From: an uncultured delta proteobacterium
GTDB lineage: Bacteria; Desulfobacterota; Desulfomonilia; UBA1062
NCBI GenBank assembly: GCA_963752595.1
Contig: CAVVYZ010000005.1
Span: 160,001 to 224,000 of the forward strand
Length of the DNA: 64,000 nucleotides
Direction: 5' to 3'
The notes below the pieces were generated by a model that saw only the letters and a list, made by a program, of their open reading frames with translations, had not been told where the DNA came from and ran no database searches. How positions within the stretch are numbered: the first letter of the stretch is position 1; every line of letters starts with the position of its first letter. This document shows, in pieces, positions 29,124 through 64,000 of the stretch. The translations under genes and the position numbers were made by a program.

Positions 29124-29220
29124 GGGGCTATGTTACATACAGATTTTTTAAGGATACGAAAGATCCTTCGTCCACAGAAAAGACACCCAGACTCATCGAT
29201 AGGAGAAAAAGAGATCCATT

Positions 29221-30678: not shown

Positions 30679-30685
30679 CAGGAAT

Positions 30686-31669
30686 CTAGGACGAATTTCT
30701 GACTGTCCCTTCCAGGATGGGCTTGAACTCCTCCATTATATCCTCCGGCCGGATCGAGGTCAGGCATACCGGATTGTTGCAGCTCCGCTTGTTGCAGGGA
30801 ATGCAGGAGAAATTTTTTCGAATCACCCGTCCACGGTACGGGCCGGTTCTCCGGGGATCTGCGGGGCCGAACAGGGCAATGACATCCTTTCCCAGGGCAA
30901 CCGCGAGGTGCATGGGCCCGGTGTCGCAGCTCACGACAACACCGGCACCGGAGAGGACCGTGACCAGTTCCATGATCGTAGTCTTCCCTACGAGGTCGAT
31001 AACCTGCGATGTTGCCTCTTTCATGACGGCATCAGCCATCTCGTGGTCGCCGCTTCCTCCGGTGAGCACGCACGGGATGCGGTAGCGGTCCGTGACAAGG
31101 CTCGCAAGGGAGGAAAAGCCTTCGGCTGTCCACCTGTTGGCGGACTTCGTGGCGCCGATATTGAGAACGACATAGGTCTCGGGCAGGAGGACAGGTGGCG
31201 CATCTCCCTCAGGGATGGCCCATTCCGGCTGTATCCTGGGAACTCCGAGATAATCGGCGAATTCAAGATACTGGTTGACCATATGGCTCGTGGGGTCGTA
31301 CGGGGTGATGCGCTCATAAGGCATGATCCAGGTCATCTCTTTGCACCGCGCCCTGTCGAACCCGATGCGCCTGCCCGAGGAGGAAGCCATGCACAGCAGT
31401 GCGGATTTTGCAATCCGCTGGAGGTCGAGCGCCACATCGAAACGCCTGCTTCTTACCTCACGAAGGACCTCGGGCAGTGATTTCTTCCATCTCGACCTGT
31501 CGAAGAGGATTACATGATCCACAAAGGGGTGCCTGGAGAGGATAGGGAAACTCAAAGGCTCGGTTACCCAGTGGATGCGGGCGCCGAGGTGCTGCTTCAG
31601 CCTGATCGCGAGCGGCAGCGTATTCACCACATCGCCCAGCGCGCCTAGTTTGATGATCAGGATATCCAT
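30686..31669 (-). CDS. Glycosyltransferase family 9 (heptosyltransferase-like)
   Basis: IKLGALGDV, FDVALDLQ..KS, RW..F, CDTGPMHLA.A..ALFGP. Confidence 0.92.
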   Translation of the reverse strand: MDILIIKLGALGDVVNTLPLAIRLKQHLGARIHWVTEPLSFPILSRHPFVDHVILFDRSRWKKSLPEVLREVRSRRFDVALDLQRIAKSALLCMASSSGRRIGFDRARCKEMTWIMPYERITPYDPTSHMVNQYLEFADYLGVPRIQPEWAIPEGDAPPVLLPETYVVLNIGATKSANRWTAEGFSSLASLVTDRYRIPCVLTGGSGDHEMADAVMKEATSQVIDLVGKTTIMELVTVLSGAGVVVSCDTGPMHLAVALGKDVIALFGPADPRRTGPYRGRVIRKNFSCIPCNKRSCNNPVCLTSIRPEDIMEEFKPILEGTVRNSS

Positions 31670-31797
31670 TTTATCTCTGTTATTTCATAATTCATTTTTT
31701 CGCAAGTCCGGGGCATTATCCCAATGATTTACATAAAGGAAAACCTGAGGTATGTACGAGTCCGGACAGATCATCTTCGGATAAAAGGGTTTTTTCT

Positions 31798-33471: not shown

Positions 33472-33484
33472 TAATCATCAAACT

Positions 33485-33802
33485 TTATTTACAGACGGGC
33501 TGAGATCCCGGTTTCAGATCTGCCAGGTATTCGACCACTGCAGGGATGTCTTCCGATGCCACAGAGGCTCCTTTGTCTACCATCCTGGTAACGGTCTTAT
33601 TCCATGCATCCCTGTCCTTCTTTCCAAGTCCGTCACATATTCTCGGGGTTTCATGACAGGCTGTGCATGCAGTCATTACAAGGTTTGCAGGATCCCCCGC
33701 CTGCTGAGACCTGGCTTGCGATTTTTCACAAGACACCGCTGCGGCAAGCAAAACAAAAAAAGCAACCGTAAGCCCGAGCATTACCCGAACACTGTTTTTC
33801 AT
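33485..33802 (-). CDS. Small monoheme c-type cytochrome, probable lipoprotein
   Basis: Signal peptide with lipobox-like AVSC, CTACH heme motif, W..TV.RM..GA with candidate Met ligand. Confidence 0.8.
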   Translation of the reverse strand: MKNSVRVMLGLTVAFFVLLAAAVSCEKSQARSQQAGDPANLVMTACTACHETPRICDGLGKKDRDAWNKTVTRMVDKGASVASEDIPAVVEYLADLKPGSQPVCK

Positions 33803-33847
33803 AAGACCCCCTTTTAACCTCGGAACACAATATTTTCATAATATGAG

Positions 33848-35264
33848 GAGCCGATTGCAAAACTCACAATGAGGGATAATATTGCGAATCAGCATATAAG
33901 TAATGAAATAGTGAAGAGAAAGCTCTATTCTTTTTGTGCTGAGCAAAAAGAAAGGAGAAGCGATGAGCAATCTCTTCGAGATATAGAATACCACACAGGC
34001 GAGACTTTTTCCACGGTTGGAAGAGAGACTCGATCCGTTGAGTGATAAGGAGCAGCAATTTGTGAGAGTTGTCTGTCTGATGGACCTGCCGAAGCACATG
34101 CAGGGGTATCGCTGGATCGGGATAGGGAGGAAGCGAGAGGACAGGGTCTCAATCGCCAAGGCGTTTGTGGCGAAGGCGGTATACAGTTTTGAGACGACGA
34201 AGGTGCTCATAGAGTGTGTGAGGGGGTGCAAGAATCCGAGGCGGTTATGCGGATGGGAGGCGAGAGGAGATATTCCCTCTGAGTCGACCTTTTGCCGGGC
34301 GTTTGGGGAGTACTCCCATGGATGCCTGCCACAGAAGATCCACGAGGCCATGGTGGAGGAGCATTGTGGGGACAAGCTTGTGGGTCATGTGAGCCGGGAT
34401 GCGACGGCCATAGAGGCACGAGAGACGAGAGAAGACGATAAAGAAAGAAGCGGGTGAAACTGCGTCGGTGCCGAAGAGGAAACGGGGTCGCCCCAGGCAG
34501 GGAGAAGAAGTTGTTCCCAAGCCTCCGAAGAGGCTGGATCTTCAGGTTGGCCGGAGCCTGGAGGAGAATCTAAAGGATCTGCCGTATCACTGTGCTGTAG
34601 GGACCAAGGTAGACAGCAAGGGATACAAGATGACCCGGAGGGGATACAAGCTGCATATCGACTGTATTGATGGGGATATTCCGGTGAGTGCAATATTAAC
34701 CTCTGCGTCATTGCATGATTCCCAGGCAGCGATACCGCTTATGCAGATGACGTCGAAGCGGGTGGTGAGTCTGTATGATCTTATGGATTCCGCCTATGAT
34801 GCGCCGCAGATCAAGGAATTCAGTGAGGCACTCTCGCATGTTCCGATCATTGATCCCAACCAGAGGCGAGGAGAGAAGATCCCGCTTGATCCGGCCAGGA
34901 AAGCTCGTTTTGCGCAAAGGAGCAGTAGTGAGAGAGTAAACTCGTATCTGAAAGACAACCACGGAGGAAATCATATCCGGGTAAGGGGGGCATCCAAGAT
35001 CATGGCACATCTCATGTTCGGGCTCATTGTCATAACCGCGAATCAGCTTTTTCAGATGCTTTGTTGAAAGGTGTACATGCAAACTAGGACATATTCTCGG
35101 TACTTCCCGTGCAGTATGGCGGACAGCTACGCCCGAAAATCCGCATTTGGGCAATTTTTAGAATGGTAACATCAGGTAAACAGCTCTCATGACCTTGAAC
35201 ATAGAAAGTAACAGCGGCTTTGGGCTTCAAAATCTAAACCGGCTGAGAGTTTTGCAATCGGCTC
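33848..35264 (+). mobile_element. IS5/IS1182-like insertion sequence (about 1.42 kb)
   Basis: Perfect 18-bp terminal inverted repeats GAGCCGATTGCAAAACTC (33848-33865) and GAGTTTTGCAATCGGCTC (35247-35264); TATGA on both flanks (33842-33846, 35265-35269) as a likely target duplication; internal DDE transposase. Confidence 0.92.
33963..35067 (+). pseudogene. Transposase pseudogene (DDE)
   Basis: ATG 33963, in-frame TAG at 33984, 7-bp duplication frameshift at 34418-34431; motifs PSESTF.R, SRDATAI, KRKRGRP, GYKLH, MDSAYD, ERVNS. Confidence 0.88.
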
Positions 35265-35303
35265 TATGAAGCTTCTTTTATACGACAAGATATTCAAACC
35301 TCA

Positions 35304-35681
35304 TTAATAGGTAACCGTATCAGTATCCGTATGGAATGAGCGTATCGTGACGGAGACCTTGTTGGGGATGCAGAGAATGCTTTCCGCCGAACGGCTGATC
35401 CTGCCCATGTGGATGCAGACCTTGTTCATGCAGGGAGATGACTCCATGAAAACCTTTCCTGAGCGTATCTCCACGATGCTCATGCCCAGGGGGCCGGGCA
35501 CCTGGACTTCTGCATCTTCGGCAAGAGGGATCTCCCTGAATAGCCCTTGGCCGGAATAAATCCGCACCAGTGACGCTTCCCGGGAACCGGACAAATCATG
35601 GACCCACCATAATACGGCAATCACGAGAATAGAGGCTATCAGGATCAGATCCGGCCATGTCATCCCCATAGCTTTTTTCAT
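35304..35681 (-). CDS. NusG domain II-containing protein
   Basis: D..LI TM, GPLG..VEI..G.V....SPC.NKVC...G.I....I.C.PN.V. Confidence 0.85.
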   Translation of the reverse strand: MKKAMGMTWPDLILIASILVIAVLWWVHDLSGSREASLVRIYSGQGLFREIPLAEDAEVQVPGPLGMSIVEIRSGKVFMESSPCMNKVCIHMGRISRSAESILCIPNKVSVTIRSFHTDTDTVTY

Positions 35682-35810
35682 GGCATGCTTATATCCTTTT
35701 CTCCTTGCATTTCAAATACCCTTCCGAAGAAGCATAACCCAGCACGTTATTAAATACATCGGGTGAATATTGACCGGGACCCGGGTATGTGCATATAGTC
35801 CCTTTCTCAT

Positions 35811-36996: not shown

Positions 36997-38676
36997 ATGG
37001 ATATGTCGAATCCGACAAAGAATTATCAGAAAGATGCAGCCGAAGACCTCCCGAATGATGACAAAATACCCTCGAAGATCCTCGTCGTAGACGACAGCCG
37101 GGTTGTCCGCACCTACCTGCAGTCGCACCTGCAGAAAGAGGGGTATGAGGTTATCGCTGCAAAGGATGGGAAAGAAGCCCTTTCCTTACTTTCCGACAAT
37201 ATCGGCATCGTACTGCTCGACCTGTGGATGCCCGAAATGGACGGCATGGCATGCCTACGCCATATCCGGGAAAACTTCCCCGATATCCCCACCATCATGA
37301 TCACGGTGAGTCATGAGATCTCGAACGCCGTAGAAGCAATGAAGTACGGGGCATTCGATTACGTCACGAAGCCTTTCAACCCCAACGAACTCCTCGCCCT
37401 CGTCCAGCAGGCCCTGAAAACCAGAATCCAGGCGCAGCGTTTGCGCAAGGTCGAGGCTGAGCTTGCCAAGGCCCGCGAGCATGAGATCTCGATTGCTTCG
37501 CGCATCCAGCAGACGCTGCTCCTCGGAGGTGCTCCCAAAAGCCTCAAGGGGGTGCGCATAGGCGATCTCACCATTGCATCCAAAAGGATCGACGGCGACT
37601 TTTATGACTTCTATATGGTCGGGGATACATGCTTCGATGTCATCGTGGGTGACGTCATGGGCAAGGGTATTCCGGCGGCTCTCCTGGGAGCTGCCGCAAA
37701 GCAGCATTTCATGGGTGTGCTCTACCGCCTTACCCGCATCCCGGAAGGGGCCGGCATGCCCACTCCTGAAGAGATCGTACAGTCGGTCCATGCGGAGATG
37801 ATCGGGCAGATGAAGGACCTGGAGACCTTCTTCACCCTCTGCTATGCCCGCTTCGACTTGGTCAAAAATCTGATCAGTTATGTAGACTGCGGGCACATGA
37901 GGACCATCCACTACCACTTCGAGACAAATTCCTGCACCCTGCTCCAGGGTGTAAACATGCCGCTCGGTTTCCCCGGGCAGGATCATTTCAAACAGATCCT
38001 GATCCCTTTTTCCAACGGCGACCTCTTTTTCTTCTATTCCGATGGATTGACCGAGGCAAAAAATCCTAAACACGAATTCTACGGCGAGCAGCGCCTCGTG
38101 GACCTTGTCAGACGGCACTCATTCCTTGAGCCGCAGGAACTCTGCAAGACCGCCTGGAAGGAAATCACCGCATTTTCCCAGTGCGATACCTTTTCCGATG
38201 ATTTCACCTGCGTTGCCGTCAAGATCGAGGTCCCTGAGCCGACGGAACGCTATGATCAGGAATGGAAGCTGGAAGTTCCCAGCGAGCTGGGAGAGCTCGG
38301 AAGGATCAGGGCCTTTATTCAGGATATGTGCAAGAGCATGGGAACGAACGTGGTGGACGATGAAAGGATAAAGATGATCCAGATCGTCGCCACCGAGATC
38401 ATGACGAATATTATCAAGCACGCCTATCAGGGAAGACAGGGTGAAAGCGCCCTCATAGAGGCAAAGACCTCACGCGACGAGATCGTGCTGTATTTCTACG
38501 ACCACGGGATCGAGTTCGATTTCTCGTCAGCGCCCAAGCCTGTATTCGACGGATCAAAGGATGACGGATTCGGTCTCCACATCATTACACACACAGCCGA
38601 CTATGTGCGATACTCCCGTGATGAAACCGGGAGGAATTGCGCCTGCGTGACATTCTTCCTTCAAAGGAGGGGATAA
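36997..38676 (+). CDS. REC-PP2C (SpoIIE) phosphatase-RsbW-like Ser kinase fusion
   Basis: REC (VDDS, LLDLWMPEMDG, KPF); PP2C (GDFYD, GDVMGKG, SDGL.E, DDFT); HATPase (EIMTNIIKHAY, DHG..FD, GFGL). Confidence 0.92.
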   Translation: MDMSNPTKNYQKDAAEDLPNDDKIPSKILVVDDSRVVRTYLQSHLQKEGYEVIAAKDGKEALSLLSDNIGIVLLDLWMPEMDGMACLRHIRENFPDIPTIMITVSHEISNAVEAMKYGAFDYVTKPFNPNELLALVQQALKTRIQAQRLRKVEAELAKAREHEISIASRIQQTLLLGGAPKSLKGVRIGDLTIASKRIDGDFYDFYMVGDTCFDVIVGDVMGKGIPAALLGAAAKQHFMGVLYRLTRIPEGAGMPTPEEIVQSVHAEMIGQMKDLETFFTLCYARFDLVKNLISYVDCGHMRTIHYHFETNSCTLLQGVNMPLGFPGQDHFKQILIPFSNGDLFFFYSDGLTEAKNPKHEFYGEQRLVDLVRRHSFLEPQELCKTAWKEITAFSQCDTFSDDFTCVAVKIEVPEPTERYDQEWKLEVPSELGELGRIRAFIQDMCKSMGTNVVDDERIKMIQIVATEIMTNIIKHAYQGRQGESALIEAKTSRDEIVLYFYDHGIEFDFSSAPKPVFDGSKDDGFGLHIITHTADYVRYSRDETGRNCACVTFFLQRRG

Positions 38677-38678
38677 GT

Positions 38679-39023
38679 ATGAAATTCACCGTAGAAAACC
38701 TTGACGGAATCACGATCATCTCATCCCTGCCCAAGGCTCTCGATGCAAGCAATGCCATGGATTTCAAGGCAGATATAGGCCGCATCCTCGAGGAAAGCTC
38801 GCGGGTGATATTCGACATGAGCGATTTGAAATTCATCGACTCGGCCGGGTGCGGCGCGCTCATAACCTCACTGAGGCGTGTCAAAGGCTCAGGCGGCATC
38901 CTGAAGCTCTATGACGTTCAGAAGCAGGTACGTTCCGTATTCGAGCTGGTGAGAATGCATAAGGTCATTGATATCTTCAATACGCGGCAGGAGGCCCTGA
39001 ATTCTTTTTCACAGGACCGGTGA
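38679..39023 (+). CDS. STAS-domain anti-sigma factor antagonist
   Basis: LDASNA, FDMSDLKFIDSAG with phosphorylatable Ser, VRSVFEL; GGAGG RBS. Confidence 0.92.
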   Translation: MKFTVENLDGITIISSLPKALDASNAMDFKADIGRILEESSRVIFDMSDLKFIDSAGCGALITSLRRVKGSGGILKLYDVQKQVRSVFELVRMHKVIDIFNTRQEALNSFSQDR

Positions 39024-39131
39024 GGATCTTTTTATCCGGAAACCACTGACCTGCGGGCCTGTACCTGATTCCTCCAATTGGAAGTCTTTTAAGATACCCA
39101 TCGTAGAAATGCTTCGGAAAAACCATACGCC

Positions 39132-39881
39132 ATGAACCCGAACTCCAAGGATTCAGAACGCCCCCTCGATCTACTCGAAGAGCTCTACGAGCGGTACGGC
39201 AAAGACCAGGCGCTGAGTTCCTTCCCGCAGCGGTTCCGTCTCTGGCGGAAAAAGACCGCCTGGATAGCTGCAACCGGCGGGGCCAAACTCCTGAAACGCA
39301 GCGCCGATATAACAGCCTCGGTCTGGCTCTTTGTCATGCTTTCTCCACTTTTCGCCATCGTGTCGGCCGCCATCAAACTCACCGATGGCGGGCCGGTTCT
39401 CTATTGGCAGACACGGGTAGGGAAATGGGGGCAGGAATTCAGGTTTCCCAAATTCAGGTCCATGCGGGTAAACGCTGACTCCGAGAGGGAAACCCTCCTG
39501 AAACAAAGCGATCACAAGGAAAGCATCACGTTTAAAATGAAAAACGACCCCCGGATAACGCTCGTGGGCCGGATCATCAGGAGAACCAGTATCGATGAGC
39601 TGCCCCAGCTCTGGAACGTCATAAAGGGCGAGATGTCCCTCGTCGGCCCACGGCCCCCCATTCCGGAAGAAGTCGACAAGTATACGCTGAAAGATCGCAG
39701 AAGGCTGGATATAATCCCAGGGCTCACCTGTATTTGGCAGGTCAGCGGCCGCGGCGATGTCCCGTTCCCCAAGCAGCTGGAATACGATATACAGTACATC
39801 GAGAGCCATAGCCTTATGCTCGACCTCAAGCTTCTGTTAAAAACGATCTCTGCAGTCCTCACCGGCAGAGGAGCTTATTAG
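39132..39881 (+). CDS. Priming polyprenyl-phosphate phosphoglycosyltransferase (bacterial sugar transferase)
   Basis: [48 protein letters not shown]. Confidence 0.95.
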
Positions 39882-39883
39882 AG

Positions 39884-41452
39884 ATGAGCACCATCCTCAT
39901 AGCAACCGGAGAGACAGGCTGTATGAAGGCACTCGGAGAAACGAGACCGGTACCCATGCTGCCCCTGATCGACCGCCCGTTCATTCAGCACGTAGTGGAA
40001 TTCCTGGCAGGACAGGGAAGAAAGGATTTGGATATCATCCTCTCTCATCTTCCCCAGCAGATCGAAACCCTGCTCGGAGACGGCAGCAGGTGGGGCTGCA
40101 CATTCCGGTACCACCTCGTAAGGAACCTTTCGCAAGTCAGCAGGACCGTAAGAACAATCATGGACGAGAAAGATGAGCCCTGCCTCCTGGTCGATGCAAC
40201 GGCCATCCCCCAGATCGAACTCAATCAGACGGACAGGAACGACATCGGCAAAGGACCGGTTTTTTACTGTCTTGAGAGTGAGAAAAGCAGGATCTGCGAC
40301 GCTGCCTGCCCCTGGACAGGATGGGCCTGGTTACCGCAGTATGCGATACGGGTCTTTCCCGTGCTGGACAAATGGGAAGACCTGTACCACTGGGCTCATG
40401 TCCGGTTTCGCAAGAGATGCAGCACTATAAAGACACAGACCGTGCTTCGTATGGACACTTATTCCCATATGCTCGCAGCCCACAGGCAGGTCCTTGATAA
40501 GCAGTTTACCGGCCTGATGGTCACCGGCACCGAGGTGGAGGAAGGCATCTGGCTATCCAGAAATGTAGAGCTCCATCCGTACGCTCGCATCGTCAAGCCT
40601 GTCCACATCGGGCAGGACTGCCATATCGGCAAGGGAGTTCAGATCGGGCCTTATGCCGTCATCGGCAGGAACTGTGTCCTGGACGAACGCTCCACCATAT
40701 CCGATGCGGTGATCTTTCCGAACACGTATGTAGGCGAAGCCCTGGAGCTCAAAGATGTGATCGCGGACAAGAGCCGGCTCATCAATGAGCGCTACTCATC
40801 CGAAGTGACCATCACCGATGAGTTCATCCTCAGCAACATCAGGGAGAATGAGGTGAGGAAATGGCTTTCGGGTTTATTTTCGCGTGCATTCGCGGTCATC
40901 CTCCTGATGCTCACCTTTCCCTTGCTCCTTTCCACTTTCCTGAACCTGAAGAGAAAAAGACAGGGACAGGTCCTGTATAAAAGCCGGGTAGTAAAGCTCC
41001 CTTCCGAATATGACCAGGCCTTATGGAAGACATATTCCCTCCTCAGTTTCACCCCTTTCAGGGAAAAAACCGGTATGGAACCGGAAAGGAGCGACTTCCC
41101 TGCGGACCCTCCGACACGAGGCGATATCCGCAGCCACTTCCTCCTTACGGTACTTCCCGGCCTCATCAACGTGGCGCGGGGAGATCTCCAGGTAATCGGC
41201 GTGAACCCCCGCACAAAAGACGAACTGTCGAGTCTTCACAAAGATTGGGCAATGGCCTACCTCAAGTCCAAGGCAGGGCTGATCACCGAGAGCTTCATCA
41301 ATTTCGGATTCCATGCATCCGCCGATGAGGTTTACTCGGCCGAAATGATCTATTGTGCGTCATTCACGAGAAAGAAAGATCTGGTGATCCTGGGCAGGTA
41401 CTTCGGCCGTCTGCTCCGAGAACTGATCCTGCAGGGTTCGAAAAAGAAATGA
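39884..41452 (+). CDS. Nucleotidyltransferase-like + left-handed beta-helix + degenerate sugar-transferase fusion
   Basis: RP.PMLP..DRPF..H..E.L..G..WG; hexapeptide region PVHIG..C.IG..IGP..VIG; TM then LPGLINV..GDL..IG..P..K.GL. Confidence 0.75.
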   Translation: MSTILIATGETGCMKALGETRPVPMLPLIDRPFIQHVVEFLAGQGRKDLDIILSHLPQQIETLLGDGSRWGCTFRYHLVRNLSQVSRTVRTIMDEKDEPCLLVDATAIPQIELNQTDRNDIGKGPVFYCLESEKSRICDAACPWTGWAWLPQYAIRVFPVLDKWEDLYHWAHVRFRKRCSTIKTQTVLRMDTYSHMLAAHRQVLDKQFTGLMVTGTEVEEGIWLSRNVELHPYARIVKPVHIGQDCHIGKGVQIGPYAVIGRNCVLDERSTISDAVIFPNTYVGEALELKDVIADKSRLINERYSSEVTITDEFILSNIRENEVRKWLSGLFSRAFAVILLMLTFPLLLSTFLNLKRKRQGQVLYKSRVVKLPSEYDQALWKTYSLLSFTPFREKTGMEPERSDFPADPPTRGDIRSHFLLTVLPGLINVARGDLQVIGVNPRTKDELSSLHKDWAMAYLKSKAGLITESFINFGFHASADEVYSAEMIYCASFTRKKDLVILGRYFGRLLRELILQGSKKK

Positions 41453-44835: not shown

Positions 44836-46155
44836 ATGAAATGCCTCTTGATTATCAACCAGTGTACCCCCGAATGGGCTTCCGTGCCCCTTGTGGGGTA
44901 TAATTTTTTCCATGGGATCAGCCGGCTGGCCGATGTTACCCTTGCTACGCACATCCGGAACAGAAATGCACTCGAAAAGGTGCGGGCGGGGCGGAAGATC
45001 GTCTATATCCCCGAGAGTACCGCCGTACAGAACTACTACCGGATCGTTTCACGCGTCCTGAACAGGGGCAACACCAACTGGCCCGTTGCCCATGCCCTGA
45101 CCTACCCTGTGTATGCCGAGTTCAATCACAGGGTATACAGAGAATTCAGGACAGAGGTATCGGAAGGCCGGTACGATATTGTTCACGCACTGACGCCGAT
45201 TCTCCCAAGGTACCCGGTAAAACTGATCGATGCCTGCACGAACACGCCTTTCGTCCTGGGCCCGGTGAACGGAGGAGTTCCGTTCCCCAAGGCATTTTCC
45301 CAGGAGGCGAGGCAGGAATTTGCACATTTCAATCCTTTAAGAATTTTCTCCAGGCTCATACCCGGCTATGCAAGGACGTATAAAAACGCAGCTAAAGTGC
45401 TCGCCGGATCGACGTATACCCTCACCATGATCCAGGACATGTTCCATTTGAGCCCCTCCCGGATCGAGCTTTTTTTCGAAAACGGCATACCCGGCGCATT
45501 CTTCTCGCCGGAGAAGCAGCCTCGCCCCGGAGACAGCACATTCAGGCTGCTCTTCGTGGGCAGGCTGGTACCCTACAAGGGCGCAGATATGCTCATCGAG
45601 GCGGTGAGCCTGCTGGATGGGGACATAAAAGGACACATACATCTGACGATCGTCGGCGACGGGCCTGAAAAAGAAAATCTCATCACCCTGTCGGCGGATC
45701 TTGGTATTGCAGACCTGGTCAGGTTCACCGGATGGATTCCCCAGGCCGAGACCGCATCGTATTACCGGACATCGGATCTTTTCTGCTTCCCCTCCATCCG
45801 GGAGTTCGGGGGAGCTGTGGTACTGGAAGCCATGGCCTCAGGGCTGCCTTCGATTGTCGTGAATAATGGAGGGATCGGGGAGTACGTTACGGATGAGACC
45901 GGTTTCAGGATCGATCCGGTATCGAGGAGCGGGCTCATCAGCGAGATGAAAGAGAGGATCGGGCTCCTTTTCCGTGACAGGTCACTTTATGACAGGATGT
46001 CGAAAGCAGCGGCAAAAAGGGCCGGGACGTTTGAATGGGGGGTAAAGTCAAAGCAGATTCTGGATATATATCAGCAGGCGATCCATGAAAATCTCCCGGC
46101 ATCGGCCCCCAGAGATGATCTGCCGCCGGTTCTTTCCCGTACAGGCAAACCATGA
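44836..46155 (+). CDS. Glycosyltransferase family 4
   Basis: LFVGRLVPYKG, FPSIREFGGAVVLEAMA.GLP. Confidence 0.92.
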   Translation: MKCLLIINQCTPEWASVPLVGYNFFHGISRLADVTLATHIRNRNALEKVRAGRKIVYIPESTAVQNYYRIVSRVLNRGNTNWPVAHALTYPVYAEFNHRVYREFRTEVSEGRYDIVHALTPILPRYPVKLIDACTNTPFVLGPVNGGVPFPKAFSQEARQEFAHFNPLRIFSRLIPGYARTYKNAAKVLAGSTYTLTMIQDMFHLSPSRIELFFENGIPGAFFSPEKQPRPGDSTFRLLFVGRLVPYKGADMLIEAVSLLDGDIKGHIHLTIVGDGPEKENLITLSADLGIADLVRFTGWIPQAETASYYRTSDLFCFPSIREFGGAVVLEAMASGLPSIVVNNGGIGEYVTDETGFRIDPVSRSGLISEMKERIGLLFRDRSLYDRMSKAAAKRAGTFEWGVKSKQILDIYQQAIHENLPASAPRDDLPPVLSRTGKP

Positions 46156-47534
46156 GTCCTGTTGTCCATATCGTCATGTTCGGATGGATCCCGGTCGTCA
46201 TCGGGCTCTTCTTCAAACTGAAGCCCAGGCATGCCGTCATTGCATCTTTCCTTATTGCATGGCTCTTCCTGCCGAATGCCGAGTATCCCCTTCCCGGATT
46301 TCCGAACTACACCAAGATGTCTGCTACCTGCTGGGGAGTCCTCATCGCTGCAGCAGTGTTCGATATGGAAAGCCTCGCGCGCTTCAGGCTCCGCACCCTT
46401 GATATCCCCATGATCATCTGGTGCCTGTGCCCCATCGCATCCTCCCTGTCCAACGGCTACGGCATCTACGACGGCATATCCGTCTTTCTCAGACAGACCG
46501 TTACTTGGGGTTTCCCGTATTTCATCGGCAGGGTATATTTCAGCTCACTCGTTGGGCTGAAAGAGCTTGCGATCGGCATCTTCATCGGCGGCATGATCTA
46601 TATCCCCCTATGCTTATACGAAAGCCGGTTCAGCCCGCAGCTGCATTACAAGGTGTACGGATTCTACCAGCACACCTTTAACCAGACATACCGGTGGGGC
46701 GGCTGGCGGCCCATGGTTTTCATGACCCACGGCCTCATGCTGGGCGTCTGGATGATGAGCGCCACATTGGTCGCCTTCTGGCTGTGGAGCACCGGGGTAC
46801 TGAAAAGTTTCAAAGGAATCGCCATGAAATGGCTGGTCCTGCTCATGGTATTCACCACGATCTGGTGCAGGTCTACTGCCGCCATAGCCCATCTTTTCAC
46901 AGGCATGGCGATACTTTACATGTCGCAGAAGTACCGGAAACCCCTGTTCCTGATCCTTCTCGTAGCCATCCCGCTCTTCTATCTTCCCACGCGGTCCACG
47001 GGCATCTGGACAGGGAAAGACCTCGTCTCTTTCATCTCGGAGAATATCAGCGTGGACAGGGCCGAGTCGCTACGGTTCCGGATGGTCAATGAAAACATCC
47101 TGGCGGAAAAGGCCATAAAGAGGCCGCTGTTCGGCTGGGCGACATGGGGAAAGGCGCGTGTCTACGATGATGACGGCAATGACGTCTCCGTAACGGACGG
47201 CCTCTGGATCATCACCTTCGGTAATCATGGGCTGGTGGGTCTCCTGTCCATGACATTGAGCATTCTCATGCCCGTATTTTACCTGCTGCGCCATTACCCG
47301 GCACGCATTTGGGACGATCCCCGGGTGGCGCCTGCAGCGGTATTGTCCGTGCTCCTTGCTCTGTACATGGTGGACAATCTGCTCAACGCCATGATCAACC
47401 CCATCTTTCTGATATTGGCAGGGGGGATCTCCGGGCTGCCCCCGCTGGCGGTCGCGCTCAGAGAGACTTCACCTGAGCTTGAGGAAGAGAATCTCTCATC
47501 TTTAAAGCCTGCTTACGCACCGAGGTTTCTCTAA
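46152..47534 (+). CDS. O-antigen ligase/Wzy-like polysaccharide polymerase
   Basis: About 11-12 TM segments, periplasmic R..WRP..F, S..FR..E.....RP.FGW, D.LW motifs; located in an EPS cluster. Confidence 0.75.
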   Translation: MSPVVHIVMFGWIPVVIGLFFKLKPRHAVIASFLIAWLFLPNAEYPLPGFPNYTKMSATCWGVLIAAAVFDMESLARFRLRTLDIPMIIWCLCPIASSLSNGYGIYDGISVFLRQTVTWGFPYFIGRVYFSSLVGLKELAIGIFIGGMIYIPLCLYESRFSPQLHYKVYGFYQHTFNQTYRWGGWRPMVFMTHGLMLGVWMMSATLVAFWLWSTGVLKSFKGIAMKWLVLLMVFTTIWCRSTAAIAHLFTGMAILYMSQKYRKPLFLILLVAIPLFYLPTRSTGIWTGKDLVSFISENISVDRAESLRFRMVNENILAEKAIKRPLFGWATWGKARVYDDDGNDVSVTDGLWIITFGNHGLVGLLSMTLSILMPVFYLLRHYPARIWDDPRVAPAAVLSVLLALYMVDNLLNAMINPIFLILAGGISGLPPLAVALRETSPELEEENLSSLKPAYAPRFL

Positions 47535-47574: not shown

Positions 47575-49197
47575 TCACTTGAATAAAGGTTCTTTCGTAC
47601 TTCCTGCTTTCGGATATGAGATGCCCAGCTCATCGAGAAACACCCTGAACTTTAACGCCTCGGTGGTGGGCTGGTCCAGGTATTCGAGATGCCCCCAGGA
47701 GCCGGATTTCGTATCCTGTGCCGACACGAATGCAAAGGCCATGAAGAGGGTAAGGTTCATCTCCCTGCAGGAGGCAATGAATTCACGGTATGTCGAGTAC
47801 AATTCCGGCGATTCCTGGGCGTCCCAGAGCGCCTGCAGGTATGGCGGCGAAGAGCCCAACGGGAAAGGACAGATAGATTGGCCGGCCTCATAGGTAACGT
47901 AGCGGATACCATATCCAGACGCGATCTTTGCATGTTTTTCCATTGCGGGGAGTTCGTGAGCCCGCATGTTTTCGTATACGCTCCGCATGACGTCATGTGC
48001 CGTCGCCCGGGGGCCGAGGGTCTGAAGGGCCTTGTACCCTTCCGCGCCCAGGCCGAAATAGCCGCTGGATGCAAGGGCGTCGAGACCTCCCCGACCGAGG
48101 TATTCAATGATGTCTTCAGCAATACCGGGCCTTACCTGCTGACCACTGACGACCCTGATGATGCGGCCCTTTTGGTCGCCGAATTCTTCCTGCCAGATGC
48201 CGAAGGCCTGCCGGGCAAAAGACGCATATTTCCTTGCGTGGGACAGTGCCGGGTCACCGTGGGCTTCCACCCAGCGATACTGGCCGAACATGGCATTCCA
48301 CACCTCGTTGGAATACTCGATATACATCTTCCGTTCATGCCTGAGAGAGCCCTTCACCAGCCCGGCGAATCCGCGGATATAGTCGGGATCGGCCTGATGG
48401 GGGATGCAGAACCAGGGATCGGCATCGATCCGGTTGCAGAGATCTACCAGGTATTCTATTGCAACGCCGGCCCGGTCGGCCTGGGTGTACGAGGAAGGCT
48501 TCGTTCTCTGTGCCCACTGCTGCACGCCCGAATCATTGGTCCGCTGCCAGTCCATGAAACGGATGACCTTAAAAGGCTTCAGTCGTTCGAGGAATATGGG
48601 ATTGAAGGGCTGCAGCTCATAGGAATTCTCGAATCCGGGCATGATCACACGGATATTCCTGATGTGGTCATTCTTTTCGGAGCGCACGATCTTCATGAAG
48701 ATGCCCGCGTGAGAGGGCGTGACATCGAGCTCGATCCTGCCCGGCGAGCTAGTCGCCACTTTTGCATCGAAAAAGAACCTGATATCTCCTTGTCCTTCAT
48801 ACAGGCAGACATATCGCCCTTTCGGATACCGGCCTTCGATGGCCCTGCACATCAGCGTTGCCGTGATCTGGGGGGCTTCCATCCCTGGGATTTCCACCGG
48901 AAGGGAGAGCGGATATCCGTCCGCATCCAGAGGGATTGAATGGATCTTTTCGGTATCCCACGGGTTTCTGCCGCCGGGCACATTCCGATCATTCTGCGTC
49001 ACCCAGGGCATGGAGCTCTTCATTACATCGACAAAGGGCAGTTCCCGGGTATAGTAGGTCACCGATGACAGGTTCATCCCGATCGAAAACGCAGCGGGCT
49101 CAGGGCTTGAGACTTTCTGGGCAGGACTGTCGGAAAAGAACACATATCCCAAGATGAACACTGCACTTACTGCGACAGCGAATATCACTTTCTTCAT
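47575..49197 (-). CDS. Exported putative glycoside hydrolase (often annotated 'cellulose-binding protein')
   Basis: N-terminal signal/TM; GMNL..V.YY, IRFMDW, PWFCIPH, YIEYSNEVWN, YEAGQ, WG.LE motifs; GGAGAG RBS. Confidence 0.65.
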   Translation of the reverse strand: MKKVIFAVAVSAVFILGYVFFSDSPAQKVSSPEPAAFSIGMNLSSVTYYTRELPFVDVMKSSMPWVTQNDRNVPGGRNPWDTEKIHSIPLDADGYPLSLPVEIPGMEAPQITATLMCRAIEGRYPKGRYVCLYEGQGDIRFFFDAKVATSSPGRIELDVTPSHAGIFMKIVRSEKNDHIRNIRVIMPGFENSYELQPFNPIFLERLKPFKVIRFMDWQRTNDSGVQQWAQRTKPSSYTQADRAGVAIEYLVDLCNRIDADPWFCIPHQADPDYIRGFAGLVKGSLRHERKMYIEYSNEVWNAMFGQYRWVEAHGDPALSHARKYASFARQAFGIWQEEFGDQKGRIIRVVSGQQVRPGIAEDIIEYLGRGGLDALASSGYFGLGAEGYKALQTLGPRATAHDVMRSVYENMRAHELPAMEKHAKIASGYGIRYVTYEAGQSICPFPLGSSPPYLQALWDAQESPELYSTYREFIASCREMNLTLFMAFAFVSAQDTKSGSWGHLEYLDQPTTEALKFRVFLDELGISYPKAGSTKEPLFK

Positions 49198-49308
49198 CCG
49201 GCTCTCCATCACCGGCGCTTATCGCCTCTCCATCAGCAGGCGTAAGACCGACCCGGAGAAAGTATACGTGAAAGCATCCTTCCTCACAAGGCATATCATG
49301 AGCGGATC

Positions 49309-58944: not shown

Positions 58945-59880
58945 ATGACGATCAGCGATATCCAGAAAAAAAATTGTACGCATTTCATAAGAAAAAATCT
59001 TTGCCCTTACAGCAGACCTATCTCCGGAATGATCCGTTCGGCATCCATAGCAATCCTCACCTTGCTCGTCTCCCTATCATCTGCGGCCGCCGCACAGTAC
59101 TCACCCATCCAGTCCCCTGCACGACCTTTCGGGCTGAATATCGTGGATCAGGTACAGGTGGCAGGCTCGGATCAGCGTTCCGCTGATTTCCAGAGCAATT
59201 ACCTGTCTCTCATGAGCCAGTGGGGAAACATGGATCTCACCTCTCCCTCGTTTACCCAGCACACCTCTACCATCGCCCTGGACCCTTCAAAGATCAGCCT
59301 GGCCACTCAGTACGATTCCCGTGTGTATTTTATTGGCGACAATACCTGGAAGCATAGTGCACTAGGATTCAACACTGCAGGAGGAGGGATCACAGGCGGC
59401 AACCCTTTGCTCATTTTTCCGGATGCATCGGAATCAACCACTACCGCAGCGGTAAGACCATCAAAGGTCAAAGTCCCTGTGCGGACTACAACCGATCCTC
59501 TCCTGCCTGGCGACTTCGTCAGTCTAGGCACCCTTTCCGGCGGGACGCAGCTTGATTTCTTCCTGATCTCCGAGAGAACAAAAAAGATCACCGATGTCTT
59601 CTCTACCGAAGCTTCGATCAATCCCGACGGACTCAGCCATGCTCTGGTCTTTGCAAGGCCTGACAGCCCGTACCTGTTCATCGGGTTTGAAGACCTTTAT
59701 GGGGTAAGCAACGGGGGGAGCAACAGCGTCCTCTTTGCCCTGGATGTCGGTGCTGGGAATATCCATGCTTTGACCAATATGCCCGAACCTTCGACAATGC
59801 TTGTCCTGGGCTCATTCCTAACTCTCGTGATATGCCGTAAACGTACCCTTGATCTTAAACGCAAATCTCAAATGACTTGA
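58945..59880 (+). CDS. PEP-CTERM sorting-signal protein with DUF4114-like domain
   Basis: Signal peptide ending AAAA, RVYFIG..LGF, LDFFLI, NPDG..H, FIGFEDL; C-terminal MPEPSTMLVLGSFLTLVICRKR (PEP + TM + basic cluster). Confidence 0.88.
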   Translation: MTISDIQKKNCTHFIRKNLCPYSRPISGMIRSASIAILTLLVSLSSAAAAQYSPIQSPARPFGLNIVDQVQVAGSDQRSADFQSNYLSLMSQWGNMDLTSPSFTQHTSTIALDPSKISLATQYDSRVYFIGDNTWKHSALGFNTAGGGITGGNPLLIFPDASESTTTAAVRPSKVKVPVRTTTDPLLPGDFVSLGTLSGGTQLDFFLISERTKKITDVFSTEASINPDGLSHALVFARPDSPYLFIGFEDLYGVSNGGSNSVLFALDVGAGNIHALTNMPEPSTMLVLGSFLTLVICRKRTLDLKRKSQMT

Positions 59881-61853
59881 TGCGGTTATCCTCAAAACAG
59901 GCGGTGTTGCTCGGCCTGGGAGTGCTCATCCTGGGCATCGCCATTGTTGCCGGATTTTTCAGCTGGCGCTCCTACGTGATAAGCTCGCAGGAAAAGCGCT
60001 CTCTTGCTGCTGCAGAGCGACTCATAGAGCAGGCCCGGCCGAACGAGGCCCTTGCGATCATCAAAACCATGAAGGCCTCATCTCTGCCCGAGAATTCCGG
60101 AAAGTGGCTCTCTTTAGAGATCCGGACGCTTGAACAATCACGGAATATCCACAGATTGCTCTATCTTTACAGTCAGTATCCGCTGGAAGTCCTTACGCAC
60201 GAGAAGGCTTCCCTCCTCGTTGCCCGGGCCCTGCTCGAAACCAAGAAGATGGATCTCTTTACCCAGTTGAGGGATTCATGGCGCCCGCGTGAAAAGAGCC
60301 CTGAATTTTGGTTTGCCCTGGATGTAGACGCTCTCCTTACCCAGAGAAGGCAGGATGAGGCCCTTGCACTCCTCACCTCCCGATCCTTCAAAGGTGAGGC
60401 GGATTGCGGAAGGCTGGTTCGCCTCGCGCTCTTCAAGGCAGGAAAAAACCTGGACGAAGCATGGAACCTCCTGGATGAAGCCTACCGGGCCGATCCGCGT
60501 AATCCGGATGTCCGGTCATTCCGGGCTCAAGTCTTGGAATATGAGGGCAAAATGCCTCCTGCCCGCTTGGAGTATGTTGCCGCCCTTCTCTGCGATCCCA
60601 AAAATCCCTTGCTCCGGGATCAGCTTGCAGACTTCTACCGCAGACAGGGCAATTATATCCTGGCGTTGCAGACATGGATTGAAAGCTTTCCCTCCCCGGT
60701 CCCTGACTTTTTCTGGGTCAAGGCATTATTCTGGGCCAAGGTAACCCATCCTGTGGAAATAAATTTCGCGAAATCCTACGCCCCTGCCGGCGAAATGGCA
60801 CCCATGATCAAGATAATGCAGAATCTTAAGAAAGAGACCTTCTGGGATGATAACCTTCTGGGAGAGGAAGTCTCTCTTAATAAATTGGTTGAAAGCCGCC
60901 AGGAAATATTCTGGCTTCAGTTGATCCAGGCCCTGCAGGAAGGATCGGAGGCCAGGGCAATGGAACTGCTGAAATCCTCTCACTTTAAAAATTCCTCATT
61001 CCATCCTGAACTGGAGCGCACCCTCCAGATCGTCCTCGTCTACCGCAGGTGGGGCGTATTTGTCGAACCAGAGGAACAGACATTTAAACCGTATACATCA
61101 GGAAGACTTGAACACCAGCTTTTTGAGCAGATACATCTGCTTACTCACAAGAAGGACAGTTCCTATAAGAATGTCACCGTGCCGGACGATCTCGATGCCC
61201 TCCTGAAGAGCAAAGAAGCCTTCAGTTCGATGTTCCTCGCTGCCGGATGGTTAGAAGCTGCGATCGGGCTTCATAAGCTCCCGGTCATTCCCGATGGTTT
61301 CCCGGAATGGGTAGCTTATGGATTTACCCAGGCATTGAGATACAACAGGGGAAACAAAGCTGCCCTCGAATTTGCACGCCATCAGAAAATCACTCCTGCA
61401 CTCGATATGCTAACCTCGGAGATACTGCTCGCTGAAAACCGCGCCGACAAGGCTCTGCCAAGATTGCAATTACTTGCACAGAACGATACCGACATAGGGT
61501 TCCGGGCTGCCTGGCTGATGAGCATGGCATCTTTGAACAAAGGCGATCTCAATGAATCAAGGCGGATCGTACAGGATCACAAATCCCTCTCCGGCAGCAT
61601 CGCAGGCAGGCAGATCCTTGCAAGAATCGCCCTGAACGAAGGCAATGTCCCGGAGGCGGACCATTTATACGGAACGCTTGCCGGTGAGTCCCTTGAGGCC
61701 AGATCATATCTTGCCCGCAGGGCCTTCGAACGCAAGGACTGGAAAACGGCCAAAAGATTCACCCAAGAGCTCCTCAACTATTTCCCTGACATGATGGAAT
61801 TACGGGACAACATGCAAAAGATCGCACGGGAAGAGAAGCATGGCCGCCCGTGA
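59880..61853 (+). CDS. Membrane-anchored TPR-like alpha-helical protein
   Basis: N-terminal TM, TPR-like repeats (EA..LL..AY..DP.N..VR..RA; A...Y..AL..DP.N..LR..LA.FY); TGATG coupling. Confidence 0.75.
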   Translation: MRLSSKQAVLLGLGVLILGIAIVAGFFSWRSYVISSQEKRSLAAAERLIEQARPNEALAIIKTMKASSLPENSGKWLSLEIRTLEQSRNIHRLLYLYSQYPLEVLTHEKASLLVARALLETKKMDLFTQLRDSWRPREKSPEFWFALDVDALLTQRRQDEALALLTSRSFKGEADCGRLVRLALFKAGKNLDEAWNLLDEAYRADPRNPDVRSFRAQVLEYEGKMPPARLEYVAALLCDPKNPLLRDQLADFYRRQGNYILALQTWIESFPSPVPDFFWVKALFWAKVTHPVEINFAKSYAPAGEMAPMIKIMQNLKKETFWDDNLLGEEVSLNKLVESRQEIFWLQLIQALQEGSEARAMELLKSSHFKNSSFHPELERTLQIVLVYRRWGVFVEPEEQTFKPYTSGRLEHQLFEQIHLLTHKKDSSYKNVTVPDDLDALLKSKEAFSSMFLAAGWLEAAIGLHKLPVIPDGFPEWVAYGFTQALRYNRGNKAALEFARHQKITPALDMLTSEILLAENRADKALPRLQLLAQNDTDIGFRAAWLMSMASLNKGDLNESRRIVQDHKSLSGSIAGRQILARIALNEGNVPEADHLYGTLAGESLEARSYLARRAFERKDWKTAKRFTQELLNYFPDMMELRDNMQKIAREEKHGRP

Positions 61854-62661
61854 TATCTCTTTTCTTTCGCTCCTTTTCTTTTTGGCGATCTATATCTGGT
61901 TGAGGGATCTCACAGGGATAACTTCTCTGGAAAACACCCTTCCCATACTCCTGTCCCTGCCCCTGTTCGTCTATATGGGGAGCCCCTGGAAACTGCAGGA
62001 AAACCCTCAGCCGATCTCTTACAGCAACCTCGTCATCGGTACGGCAGGGTTTGTCCTGGGCATCCTGATGGATGTTCCACTCCTTCCGGCTGCAAGCTGG
62101 ACGTATCTTTTATGGACATGGCTCTGCCCACGCGTGAATCCACACGATCTACCCTCCGTACGAAGGCTTATGATCCTACCTCTTTTCGCCTTCCCATGGC
62201 TGAATCTCGAAGGGAATTACATTGGATGGTATTTCAGGCTCTCCGGCGCCTGGGTAACTGCGAAGACCTTCTCAGTCATGGGGTTCAATGTGCTGCACGA
62301 GGGCACACAGCTCATAGTCCAGGGGTTGCCTGTGGGAATCGGCGAGGCCTGTTCGGGTATCAATGTCCTCCAATCCATGCTTATAGCCGGTTCTGCCCTG
62401 GCGTATCTCTATGTCGGCAGGTTGAAGATTTTCTGGTTGAATCTCGTGGCACTGGTAATTATTGCGTGGCTGGCAAATACCTTACGGATCGTTATCCTCT
62501 GCATCACGGCGCTGACCATGGGCCGGGAATTCGCGCTGGGAATATTCCATACCTGGGGCGGGTGTCTGGTTCTCTTCCTGATGCTCTGCCTTACCTGGGC
62601 CATTCTCTCCCTGCAAGTTGCATATATCCGAAAGCCTGCCGCCTCATCAGCCTGTCCATGA
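61840..62661 (+). CDS. Exosortase/archaeosortase family transpeptidase
   Basis: Multi-TM; catalytic Cys in EACSGI, Arg in ANTLRI, His in FHTWGG. Confidence 0.92.
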   Translation: MAARDISFLSLLFFLAIYIWLRDLTGITSLENTLPILLSLPLFVYMGSPWKLQENPQPISYSNLVIGTAGFVLGILMDVPLLPAASWTYLLWTWLCPRVNPHDLPSVRRLMILPLFAFPWLNLEGNYIGWYFRLSGAWVTAKTFSVMGFNVLHEGTQLIVQGLPVGIGEACSGINVLQSMLIAGSALAYLYVGRLKIFWLNLVALVIIAWLANTLRIVILCITALTMGREFALGIFHTWGGCLVLFLMLCLTWAILSLQVAYIRKPAASSACP

Positions 62662-63131
62662 AAAGACCCCAACTCATATCGATTCTTATCTGCATCTATT
62701 GCATCCTGAATTCCTTAAATCTTGCAGAGACATGGATGTCAGCGGCAAGAGAAATTGCCGGTCCCATGGCTCTCGGCTTATGGAGCTCACCGGTGATCTT
62801 TTTCTGGTATATCCAGCAGAAAACACCACGGCCGACCAAAGAGAGGCCTCTCCTCTTAGGCCTTGCCCTGTTTTTCTCTTTTACCGGCATGCTGGGATCC
62901 CTGCGAGTCCTGGGCCATATCGGGCTTGCATGCGCCTTTGGCGCACTGCTCCCCAATTTGCCCGTGCATCTTTTCTGGCTTGCTGCTTCTATCTCCTGGA
63001 TGCCTGCACTTGACTGGTTTGGCGGAAGATTCTTCCCCGAGTATGTAACCGTTGCCCGTATTCTCCTGGCAACCATCCCATCCTGGTATTTTGTCCGATC
63101 GGTCCAACGCGTATCCAGGAATCAATCATGA
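62658..63131 (+). CDS. Small multi-TM hypothetical protein (157 aa) in the exosortase cassette
   Basis: ATGA overlaps at both ends; MKRPQLISILICIYC.. with 4-5 hydrophobic segments (C-terminal part of ORF 62112..63131). Confidence 0.7.
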   Translation: MKRPQLISILICIYCILNSLNLAETWMSAAREIAGPMALGLWSSPVIFFWYIQQKTPRPTKERPLLLGLALFFSFTGMLGSLRVLGHIGLACAFGALLPNLPVHLFWLAASISWMPALDWFGGRFFPEYVTVARILLATIPSWYFVRSVQRVSRNQS

Positions 63132-63715
63132 CTCCGCTCGCCGATAAACTTCTCTGGACAGCGCTTATCATGGCGCTCGCTCTCGGAATCCTCTTTGACG
63201 CAAGCTCTCTTCCCGAAGACATGAGCAGGGTAAACCACATCCCCGCCCAAGGCCTCGGGTTTACCAGTGTTGACATACCCTTGAGCTCAAGCGAGCTTTC
63301 CCTGTACTCAAAGGCAGAGGTAGTCAAAAGGTATTATCAGCTGGGCAAGGACCGGTTCATGCTTATCGCCATAGACGGCGCGAAGAACAGGCATGCAGTG
63401 CATGATCCGATATATTGCTTCCAAGGCGCCGGATGGCAGATCGCTGAGAAAATTGCAGTGCCGGTCGAAAGTGGAGAAGCCCTCCTGCTTCTTCTTGAAA
63501 AGAACGGTTCGTATCGCGAGGTGGCGTACTGGTTTACGGACGGTAAAAACCGCCACACCTCTGTGGTGCGATACTGGATTCAAGCAACCTTGCGGAGGAT
63601 AACCATGGGCCGTTCCGGCAAAGAGCCCATCCTGATCATGCTCCAATCCGTTGATGAACACCCGGCGAATTTCAGGAAGATATTCGATCAGTTCGGAGTA
63701 TTATTTGTACTATAA
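63128..63715 (+). CDS. Exosortase-associated EpsI-like protein
   Basis: N-terminal TM, R.Y, NRHAVHDP.YCF.G.GW, V.YWF motifs. Confidence 0.85.
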   Translation: MTPLADKLLWTALIMALALGILFDASSLPEDMSRVNHIPAQGLGFTSVDIPLSSSELSLYSKAEVVKRYYQLGKDRFMLIAIDGAKNRHAVHDPIYCFQGAGWQIAEKIAVPVESGEALLLLLEKNGSYREVAYWFTDGKNRHTSVVRYWIQATLRRITMGRSGKEPILIMLQSVDEHPANFRKIFDQFGVLFVL

Positions 63716-63784
63716 CGTACTCATGTGCTTGATCACACATCCGAATCACCACCAAGACACTCTTTCACCCAAGGAGCCTTACCC

Positions 63785-64000
63785 ATGAGACGCAACCCTG
63801 TGGCCATCCTCGGTATACCCATCGACTGTTTTACCATGGATGAGACCATTCAGTACATCTTCCACCTTATGGAATGCTATGCCTCCGACAAAAAGTCCCG
63901 GCTTGTCTGTACGGCAAATACCGATTTCATCGTGAACACGTTGAGCTGGGATCTCAAGAAAACAAGCCACCCCGAACTCCTTGACATCCTCAGGAAAGCT
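63785..64000 (+). CDS. WecB/TagA/CpsF family glycosyltransferase, partial (runs off the right edge)
   Basis: AAGGAG RBS; MRRNPVAILGIPIDCFTMDET..LVCTANTDF..ELLDILRKA. Confidence 0.8.
   Translation, partial: MRRNPVAILGIPIDCFTMDETIQYIFHLMECYASDKKSRLVCTANTDFIVNTLSWDLKKTSHPELLDILRKA

Follow-up and report, generated by a model that had tools for sequence, protein, structure and literature searches.

The subject of this analysis is a five-gene cassette at positions 58,945-63,715 (forward strand) of a window from the contig CAVVYZ010000005.1 of an uncultured delta proteobacterium, the window being the whole stretch of 64,000 nucleotides that was analysed. Judging from sequence comparisons, the cassette is a real, conserved module of the exosortase superfamily, outside every subfamily named in NCBIfam. 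We favour, with reasonable though limited confidence, the reading that an exosortase of this unnamed subfamily acts together with a 157-residue half-exosortase-like protein, EpsI and an anchored tetratricopeptide repeat (TPR) protein. It would cleave the adjacent, variant-tagged cargo for delivery to the surface, where the cargo would help to hold the polysaccharide made by the locus. Such a family is a compact and self-marking test case, in which a single enzyme is paired with a single cargo and naturally occurring fusions indicate the subunits.

The cassette and its exosortase

An earlier note on this DNA had described five same-strand, overlapping genes, and all five open reading frames (ORFs) were found on the forward strand with the junctions it gave, in order TGATG, a 14-bp overlap, ATGA and ATGA. 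The cargo gene (58,945-59,880, from the ORF list and the sequence) encodes 311 amino acids (aa). It is followed by the genes for the TPR protein (59,880-61,853, 657 aa), the exosortase (61,840-62,661, 273 aa), a small membrane protein (62,658-63,131, 157 aa) and an EpsI-like protein with an N-terminal membrane anchor (63,128-63,715, 195 aa). The TPR gene was present as described, but the reported length of 658 aa requires a start at the TTG at 59,877, and 657 aa are encoded from the ATG of TGATG. The G+C content of the cassette was 52%, compared with 53% for the window.

The exosortase passed the superfamily cut-offs of PF09721 (81.7 bits, cut-off 25.7) and TIGR04178 (46.1 bits, cut-off 23). 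Subfamily models were taken from NCBIfam as of June 2026. The enzyme failed TIGR02602 (8TM_EpsH; 62.5 bits, cut-off 105.55) and TIGR03109 (XrtA; 48.4 bits, cut-off 208). It also failed all models for XrtB, C, D, E, N, O, Q, T, V, W and Z, the cyanoexosortases and the archaeosortases, scoring at most 41.4 bits against cut-offs of 95-475. A database search recovered 95 exosortase relatives, 70 of which were aligned. The best E-value of these 70 homologues against the named models was 1.7e-20, and the window enzyme reached 4.2e-17 on TIGR02602. The intact Cys/Arg/His triad claimed for this gene was confirmed as Cys171, Arg216 and His237, constant in 70/70 aligned homologues; the triad residues of other exosortases occupy the same columns (37/37, 37/37 and 36/37). 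Its AlphaFold model was helical (pLDDT 92.5), in keeping with a multi-helix membrane protein. No solved exosortase structure was found in the PDB copy searched: profile searches gave no relative there, and a fold search only generic helical bundles (Z <=8.8).

A FastTree tree was built from the window enzyme, 41 enzymes hand-picked from the 80 genome loci and 37 other exosortases; this outgroup comprised XrtA-type, XrtC-, XrtD- and XrtU-like enzymes and cyanoexosortase A, and so covered part of the named subfamilies. The 42 cassette enzymes formed a single clade (support 0.916, branch length 2.06). An N-terminal motif of the Y-x-H-G type occurred in 1/42 of them, compared with 20/37 of the other exosortases. 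The proposal of an unnamed exosortase subtype, for which the profile scores had been named as a possible disproof, was thus upheld: the superfamily cut-offs were passed, no named Xrt subfamily cut-off was reached by the window enzyme, and the clade was distinct. A divergent member of a subfamily already described in print would fit the known pattern of dedicated sorting systems, as laid out in the available part of bioRxiv 10.1101/2023.06.07.544157. However, the window enzyme lies far below all named NCBIfam cut-offs and the best E-values of its 70 homologues are similarly weak, and we consider this identity very unlikely. The portions available to us of the literature on exosortases, PEP-CTERM proteins, EpsI, DUF4114 and chlamydiae described no such cassette, half-exosortase subunit or chlamydial system; the subfamily survey of Haft et al. 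(2012) lay outside this coverage.

The cassette resembles the XrtA/EpsH system (Haft et al. 2006, PMC1569441) in its Cys/Arg/His exosortase, its adjacent or fused EpsI-like protein, its TPR protein, its tag of PEP, transmembrane helix and basic residues, and its setting in an exopolysaccharide (EPS) locus. It differs from XrtA and 8TM_EpsH in the low scores of its enzyme against both models, and from the XrtA system in possessing the additional 157-aa subunit. Its TPR protein is anchored by a helix, whereas PrsT is a lipoprotein, and unlike XrtA/PrsK/PrsR the locus has a receiver-SpoIIE-HATPase/STAS module as its regulator. Other named exosortases (XrtC with VPDSG, XrtD with VPLPA, XrtE with VPEID; XrtN, O, Q, T, U, V, W and Z) likewise combine a variant tag with an enzyme of its own and have an EpsI-like protein fused or adjacent. 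Unlike in those systems, an additional membrane domain separates enzyme and EpsI in the fused form of the cassette (~660 aa), and the enzyme is paired with one cargo in some lineages and with many in others. The XrtF system is similar in joining a variant exosortase to a neighbouring partner gene, likened here by description only, and in its link to biofilms. It differs in that XrtF targets are not known, and no XrtF model matched the enzyme at the thresholds used.

Locus scans covered the best 80 of 132 genome matches and the best 80 of 149 metagenome matches, and synteny was counted in loci with sufficient flanking sequence. The TPR gene lay directly upstream of the exosortase in 75/80 genome and 69/69 metagenome loci. 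Immediately after the exosortase came the 157-aa gene (67/74 and 58/60), and EpsI was in place in 63/70 genome and 39/42 metagenome loci. Within 6 kb upstream, 40/67 genome and 31/37 metagenome loci had a tagged protein. Since the same arrangement recurred in most of the 160 related loci, it cannot be attributed to chance. Among the names in the titles of the carrier records were Deltaproteobacteria, Desulfoluna, Verrucomicrobia, Lentisphaeria, Chlorobiaceae, Parachlamydiaceae and Waddliaceae, and two cultured Desulfoluna strains (L037, L039) were among the carriers. Conservation of the cassette thus extends over Deltaproteobacteria, Verrucomicrobia, Lentisphaerae, Chlorobiaceae and environmental chlamydiae, and the counts for the TPR, 157-aa and EpsI genes bear out the synteny of the partners across distant phyla. 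Seven genome loci were exceptions to the adjacency of the 157-aa gene; in 5/5 of the genomes searched among them the gene was present elsewhere, twice in a second complete cassette, twice detached together with EpsI and once alone. The description of the cassette as self-contained therefore holds for most loci, but in some genomes the TPR-exosortase pair is unlinked from the pair of small subunit and EpsI.

In a sample of the phylum of the Pedosphaera record, the enzyme was found in 2/251 genomes and the subunit in the same two, one of which was the centre genome. In the corresponding chlamydial sample, enzyme, subunit and tag were found in the same 8/200 genomes (centre included; one genome unscored). 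In these unbiased phylum samples, then, few genomes have the system, and those that do have it whole. Two Pedosphaera loci (L069:5355-6191 and L077:2061-2903) carried a second exosortase copy that lacked the small subunit and preceded a protein with a different tag flavour; the full set of enzyme, subunit and EpsI was located elsewhere in the same genomes. In the tree, the window enzyme clustered with other Deltaproteobacteria records (support 0.996), and the closest record among the matches listed was Syntrophaceae bacterium UBA6087 (80% identity). The Desulfoluna enzymes clustered with one Lentisphaeria enzyme (support 0.956), apart from the Deltaproteobacteria group of the window, which suggests that the cassette enzyme may have moved between lineages by transfer.

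The small membrane subunit and its partners

The 157-aa protein is probably a remote homologue of the N-terminal half of exosortases, lacking the catalytic C-terminal half, on the evidence of profile comparisons and structure models. It had been called an orphan membrane subunit, a term that is probably wrong in view of this likeness and of its natural fusions to the enzyme, to EpsI or to both. Counts for this family were taken from a profile rebuilt on domain envelopes (141 matches), as an earlier iterative profile had drifted onto overlapping frames (215-225). The protein had 207 relatives at E<=0.001 (cluster representatives). Among 149 relatives inspected, 139 were standalone, five were fused to EpsI, three to the enzyme and two to both. 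Triple fusions were also seen in L074, L080, L083 and L154, the first three of which form one clade. An assembly artefact or a single frameshifted gene was ruled out by the predominance of the separate-gene form.

The window copy and 111 of the 133 locus domains were compared with 67 non-cassette exosortase rows using hhalign. The small subunit matched the exosortase N-terminal region with a probability of 59% and a score of 34.7, and the first Trp motif was in register. The reversed control scored 18.2 and the 25 block shuffles at most 19.4. PF09721 was the commonest Pfam match among members of the family (6/112 at E<=0.1, best 1.6e-5), and exosortase models were the commonest NCBIfam matches. 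In Desulfoluna, the small subunit matched model positions 10-141 of PF09721 (E 2.2e-4). AlphaFold predicted helices at residues 3-29, 34-55, 64-80, 83-97, 103-125 and 127-156 of the small subunit (pLDDT 89.7) and at 3-28, 30-47, 61-77, 81-95, 101-124 and 126-146 of the enzyme. In these models the small protein ends at the point where the strands preceding Cys171 of the enzyme start. A fold search with the model of the 157-aa protein gave no clear match at E<=0.001. In the ESM Atlas an exosortase-domain cluster ranked third for this protein (0.82), which is a lead only; recognition was low. The Atlas also showed a cluster of 61 proteins of ~149 aa, mostly from Pseudomonadota, two thirds of them with PF09721, and short exosortase-like proteins may occur outside the cassette system too.

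The weak profile scores and the low recognition in the ESM Atlas would also be expected if the 157-aa protein were an unrelated membrane partner of EpsI that resembles exosortases through its hydrophobic composition. In split cassettes the small subunit indeed mostly goes with EpsI and not with the enzyme (G152, G153, G575 and a second pair in G122). However, the true hhalign score was far above those of the reversed and shuffled sequences and the alignment brought the N-terminal Trp motifs into register; exosortase families also led both lists of matches, and fusions of enzyme and subunit were found. We therefore regard the unrelated partner as improbable and prefer the half-exosortase. If this is true, a non-catalytic half-enzyme subunit would reveal the role of the exosortase N-terminal half. 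A second active site formed by Cys15, His87 and Arg134 of the small subunit was considered and set aside, the Cys being present in only 77/112 and the His in only 64/112 sequences.

The EpsI nature of the fifth gene product was upheld at the level of PF11984 (DUF3485; 36.1 bits, cut-off 26.1), but the EpsI cut-off of TIGR02914 was missed (20.5 bits, cut-off 42.8), as were those of the B-type (17.2, cut-off 220) and V-type (23.3, cut-off 228) models. The C-terminal domain of XrtU (NF033780) gave no match to the EpsI-like protein at E<=1; it does match another exosortase from Verrucomicrobia. EpsI had no known function at its first description, according to the available text of PMC1569441. The TPR protein has a single N-terminal membrane helix (residues 9-27) without a lipobox, and a lipobox-like motif was seen in 3/125 of its full-length relatives. 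It scored 29 bits against the PrsT model (TIGR02917), failing the cut-off of 312.2, and by these sequence features it is not PrsT. Two TPR paralogues stand upstream of the enzyme in eleven loci, most of them chlamydial.

Sorting tag, cargo and specificity

The C-terminal tail attributed to the first gene was recovered: MPEPST, a hydrophobic run and RKR at the C-terminus, which is the PEP-CTERM layout of a PEP motif, a hydrophobic helix and a basic cluster. This sorting signal (59,782-59,844, forward strand) is a variant in which Phe takes the place of the classical Gly, the family consensus being xPEPATxLxLGSFL...RR (xPEPATxLxLGSFLxLxxxxxRR over 71 aligned tags). Phe was found at tag position +11 in 50/68, and the classical tags of the source genome have Gly there. 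The window tag failed PF07589 (13.7 bits, cut-off 20.7). Tags were counted by hidden Markov model, as a loose regular-expression scan gave mostly noise. With a tag model from which 14 rows had been left out (window, Deltaproteobacteria and close kin), the cognate tag scored 28.4 bits and seven classical tags 15.4-22.1 bits. The Pfam model placed them in reverse order, with 17 bits for the cognate tag and 25-37.6 bits for the classical ones.

Two further intact exosortases in the source genome passed the XrtA cut-off (217.2 and 214.3 bits), and eight classical PEP-CTERM proteins scored above the Pfam cut-off. An additional exosortase-like gene (G000:C6:5748-6455) had internal stops in its match and was apparently broken. 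PrsT was not found above its cut-off in this 84%-complete genome, where the best PrsR score was 428.7 against a cut-off of 502.6. Exosortases and tags were then surveyed in 29 hand-chosen genomes. In 17 small genomes among them the cassette family provided the only exosortase above cut-off; 13 of these were titled as chlamydiae, one was placed in the chlamydial phylum by the sample, and three were unassigned or otherwise titled. There were 1-18 tags per genome at E<=0.05 in the chosen genomes and 1-16 at E<=1e-4, dispersed, in the chlamydial phylum sample, and the 32 top-scoring tagged proteins fell into eight unrelated groups.

Because the cassette enzyme is the only exosortase found beside many unrelated tags in chlamydiae, whereas the source genome has XrtA enzymes with classical substrates, it probably serves a single cargo in the source genome and acts as a general sorter in chlamydiae. 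The system looks dedicated where it stands beside XrtA-type enzymes and general in chlamydiae. The notion of a dedicated, one-substrate system thus agrees with the source genome but not with chlamydiae, where several dispersed and unrelated proteins are tagged. For the chlamydiae, which are host-dependent bacteria, the tags thus provide a catalogue of proteins predicted to reach the surface. Alternatively, the enzyme might not be tag-specific at all: it would overlap with XrtA, either enzyme would process any PEP-CTERM protein, and the variant tag would merely record the shared ancestry of the cassette. The 17 small genomes in which the cassette enzyme stands alone with varied tags would suit this explanation, as would the gap of only ~6 bits between variant and classical tags in the source genome. 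It does not readily account for the opposite ranking by the Pfam model, nor for the same tag flavour on unrelated cargo domains adjoining the cassette in six loci (L014, L026, L027, L040, L104 and L112), and we think it unlikely; a tag-specific enzyme remains our preferred explanation.

Sequence comparison indicates that the cargo is usually of the DUF4114 family and carries a LecB-like calcium/sugar motif, most of which the window copy has lost. The window cargo has a hydrophobic stretch at residues 32-50, a probable signal peptide by hydropathy only, and a DUF4114-type domain that scored 16.3 bits against PF13448 and failed the cut-off of 27. Two of three scanned relatives passed (55.2 and 48.0 bits), and DUF4114 was the top ESM Atlas cluster for the window cargo (0.93). 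A profile of the cargo C-terminal domain found LecB/PA-IIL in 6/6 PDB matches, aligned on an acidic motif. The full cargo profile gave nothing informative in the PDB, and 0/34 members matched NCBIfam. The acidic motif was intact in 54/72 cargo sequences, across phyla. It was altered in the lineage of the window, and most in the window copy and L007. The corresponding Ca2+/sugar site of the window cargo (59,686-59,736, forward strand) retains a Glu-Asp pair but no longer has the D-x-D-x-N-D ligands found in most relatives. In LecB the acidic motif binds Ca2+ and sugar, consistent with what has been proposed for PilY1.1. For the DUF4114 domain of Myxococcus PilY1.1, Ca2+-dependent EPS binding is proposed in the available text of PMC9109919, and a DUF4114-containing domain of Acanthamoeba MBP binds mannose resin according to that of PMC11934332. 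The cargo family therefore resembles DUF4114, LecB (PA-IIL) and BclA-type lectins, differing from PilY1.1 in that it would be displayed by way of an exosortase tag and not at a pilus tip. The family points to lectin-type binding of EPS, with a motif that is degenerate in the window copy, and a lectin-type cargo would be a concrete means for PEP-CTERM proteins to hold EPS.

The cargo could instead be mainly a glycoprotein acceptor, to which the glycan of the locus is covalently attached, the lectin-like motif being incidental. Ser and Thr make up 20% of the mature window cargo and 13-30% of the 32 tagged proteins, the motif is lost in the window lineage, the cargo domain is replaceable, and glycosylation of PEP-CTERM proteins has been suggested (available parts of bioRxiv 10.1101/2023.06.07.544157, PMC12188702 and bioRxiv 10.64898/2025.12.21.693542). 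The retention of the acidic motif in most cargo sequences across phyla speaks against this, and no linking enzyme was identified at the locus. We hold the acceptor role to be rather doubtful and favour the lectin.

Exopolysaccharide locus, proposed mechanism and neighbouring genes

The cassette forms the closing end of a Wzy-type EPS locus (36,997-58,823, forward strand), which comprises a receiver-SpoIIE-HATPase regulator, a STAS ORF, a priming sugar transferase, a Wzc-like protein, a flippase, glycosyltransferases and an AsnB-like amidotransferase. A match to the EPS genes of the window was found in 35 of the 47 genome loci of at least 15 kb, so the EPS-operon setting of the earlier note was confirmed as the usual one.

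In the mechanism that we propose, the cargo would leave through the Sec pathway and stay anchored through its C-terminal helix, by analogy with PEP-CTERM biology. Cys171, with Arg216 and His237, would then cut near the PEP motif. The 157-aa protein and EpsI, which are co-inherited and naturally fused, would contact the enzyme as its accessory unit. The subunit likely arose when a gene for an exosortase-EpsI fusion was duplicated and the catalytic half disappeared from one of the copies. The TPR protein may act as a periplasmic escort for the cargo. For most relatives, the cargo would be a likely Ca2+-dependent lectin on EPS; because the Ca2+/sugar motif of the window copy is degenerate, that copy may use another mode of binding or be retained via its own glycans.

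Several observations weigh against this reading. The hhalign probability and the six PF09721 matches given above make for only moderate homology of the small subunit, the window's own 157-aa copy matches no exosortase model, and its comparison with the enzyme of its own cassette is weaker (22%). The LecB match is weak (E 0.7-1), and the window cargo is without most Ca2+ ligands and below the DUF4114 cut-off. The variant tag is only modestly distinct from the classical ones, 12/47 long loci have no match to the EPS genes of the window, and related genomes are non-independent samples.

A bolder version can be put forward tentatively, as one that we think may well prove wrong. In it the cassette would be a multi-subunit exosortase in which a catalytically dead half-copy of the enzyme is an obligatory subunit coupling enzyme to EpsI. 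It would move between phyla with the EPS locus, display a Ca2+-dependent, EPS-gripping lectin and serve environmental chlamydiae as the sole protease sorting up to 16 unrelated cargos to the surface.

The first genes of the EPS locus (36,997-41,452), namely the receiver-SpoIIE-HATPase regulator, the priming sugar transferase and the nucleotidyl-transferase/hexapeptide genes, also flank the cassette in seven chlamydial loci (L015, L016, L018, L019, L028, L038 and L041), most of which have the WecB-STAS gene as well. Because these genes recur beside chlamydial cassettes, the comparison suggests that the EPS locus is passed on as one block and is controlled by partner-switching instead of PrsKR. 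A short ORF between 38,676 and 39,132 is presumably a STAS anti-anti-sigma factor, as it reads like one. The ORF at 46,152-47,534 was inferred to be Wzy from its sequence and context, having no family match. Within the locus, a 545-aa membrane-anchored protein on the reverse strand (47,575-49,212) gave no Pfam or meaningful NCBIfam match. Directly after the cassette, a WecB/TagA/CpsF glycosyltransferase fused to STAS domains (519 aa, forward strand) starts at 63,725 and extends past the end of the window at 64,000; a relative of it was present in 20/80 genome loci. Upstream of the EPS locus lies an LPS-core-type (lipopolysaccharide) cluster with GT9 heptosyltransferase and Kdo/WaaP kinase genes (28,134-33,471), and between the two are fragmented frames (~33,400-35,800) that we take to be transposase-like.

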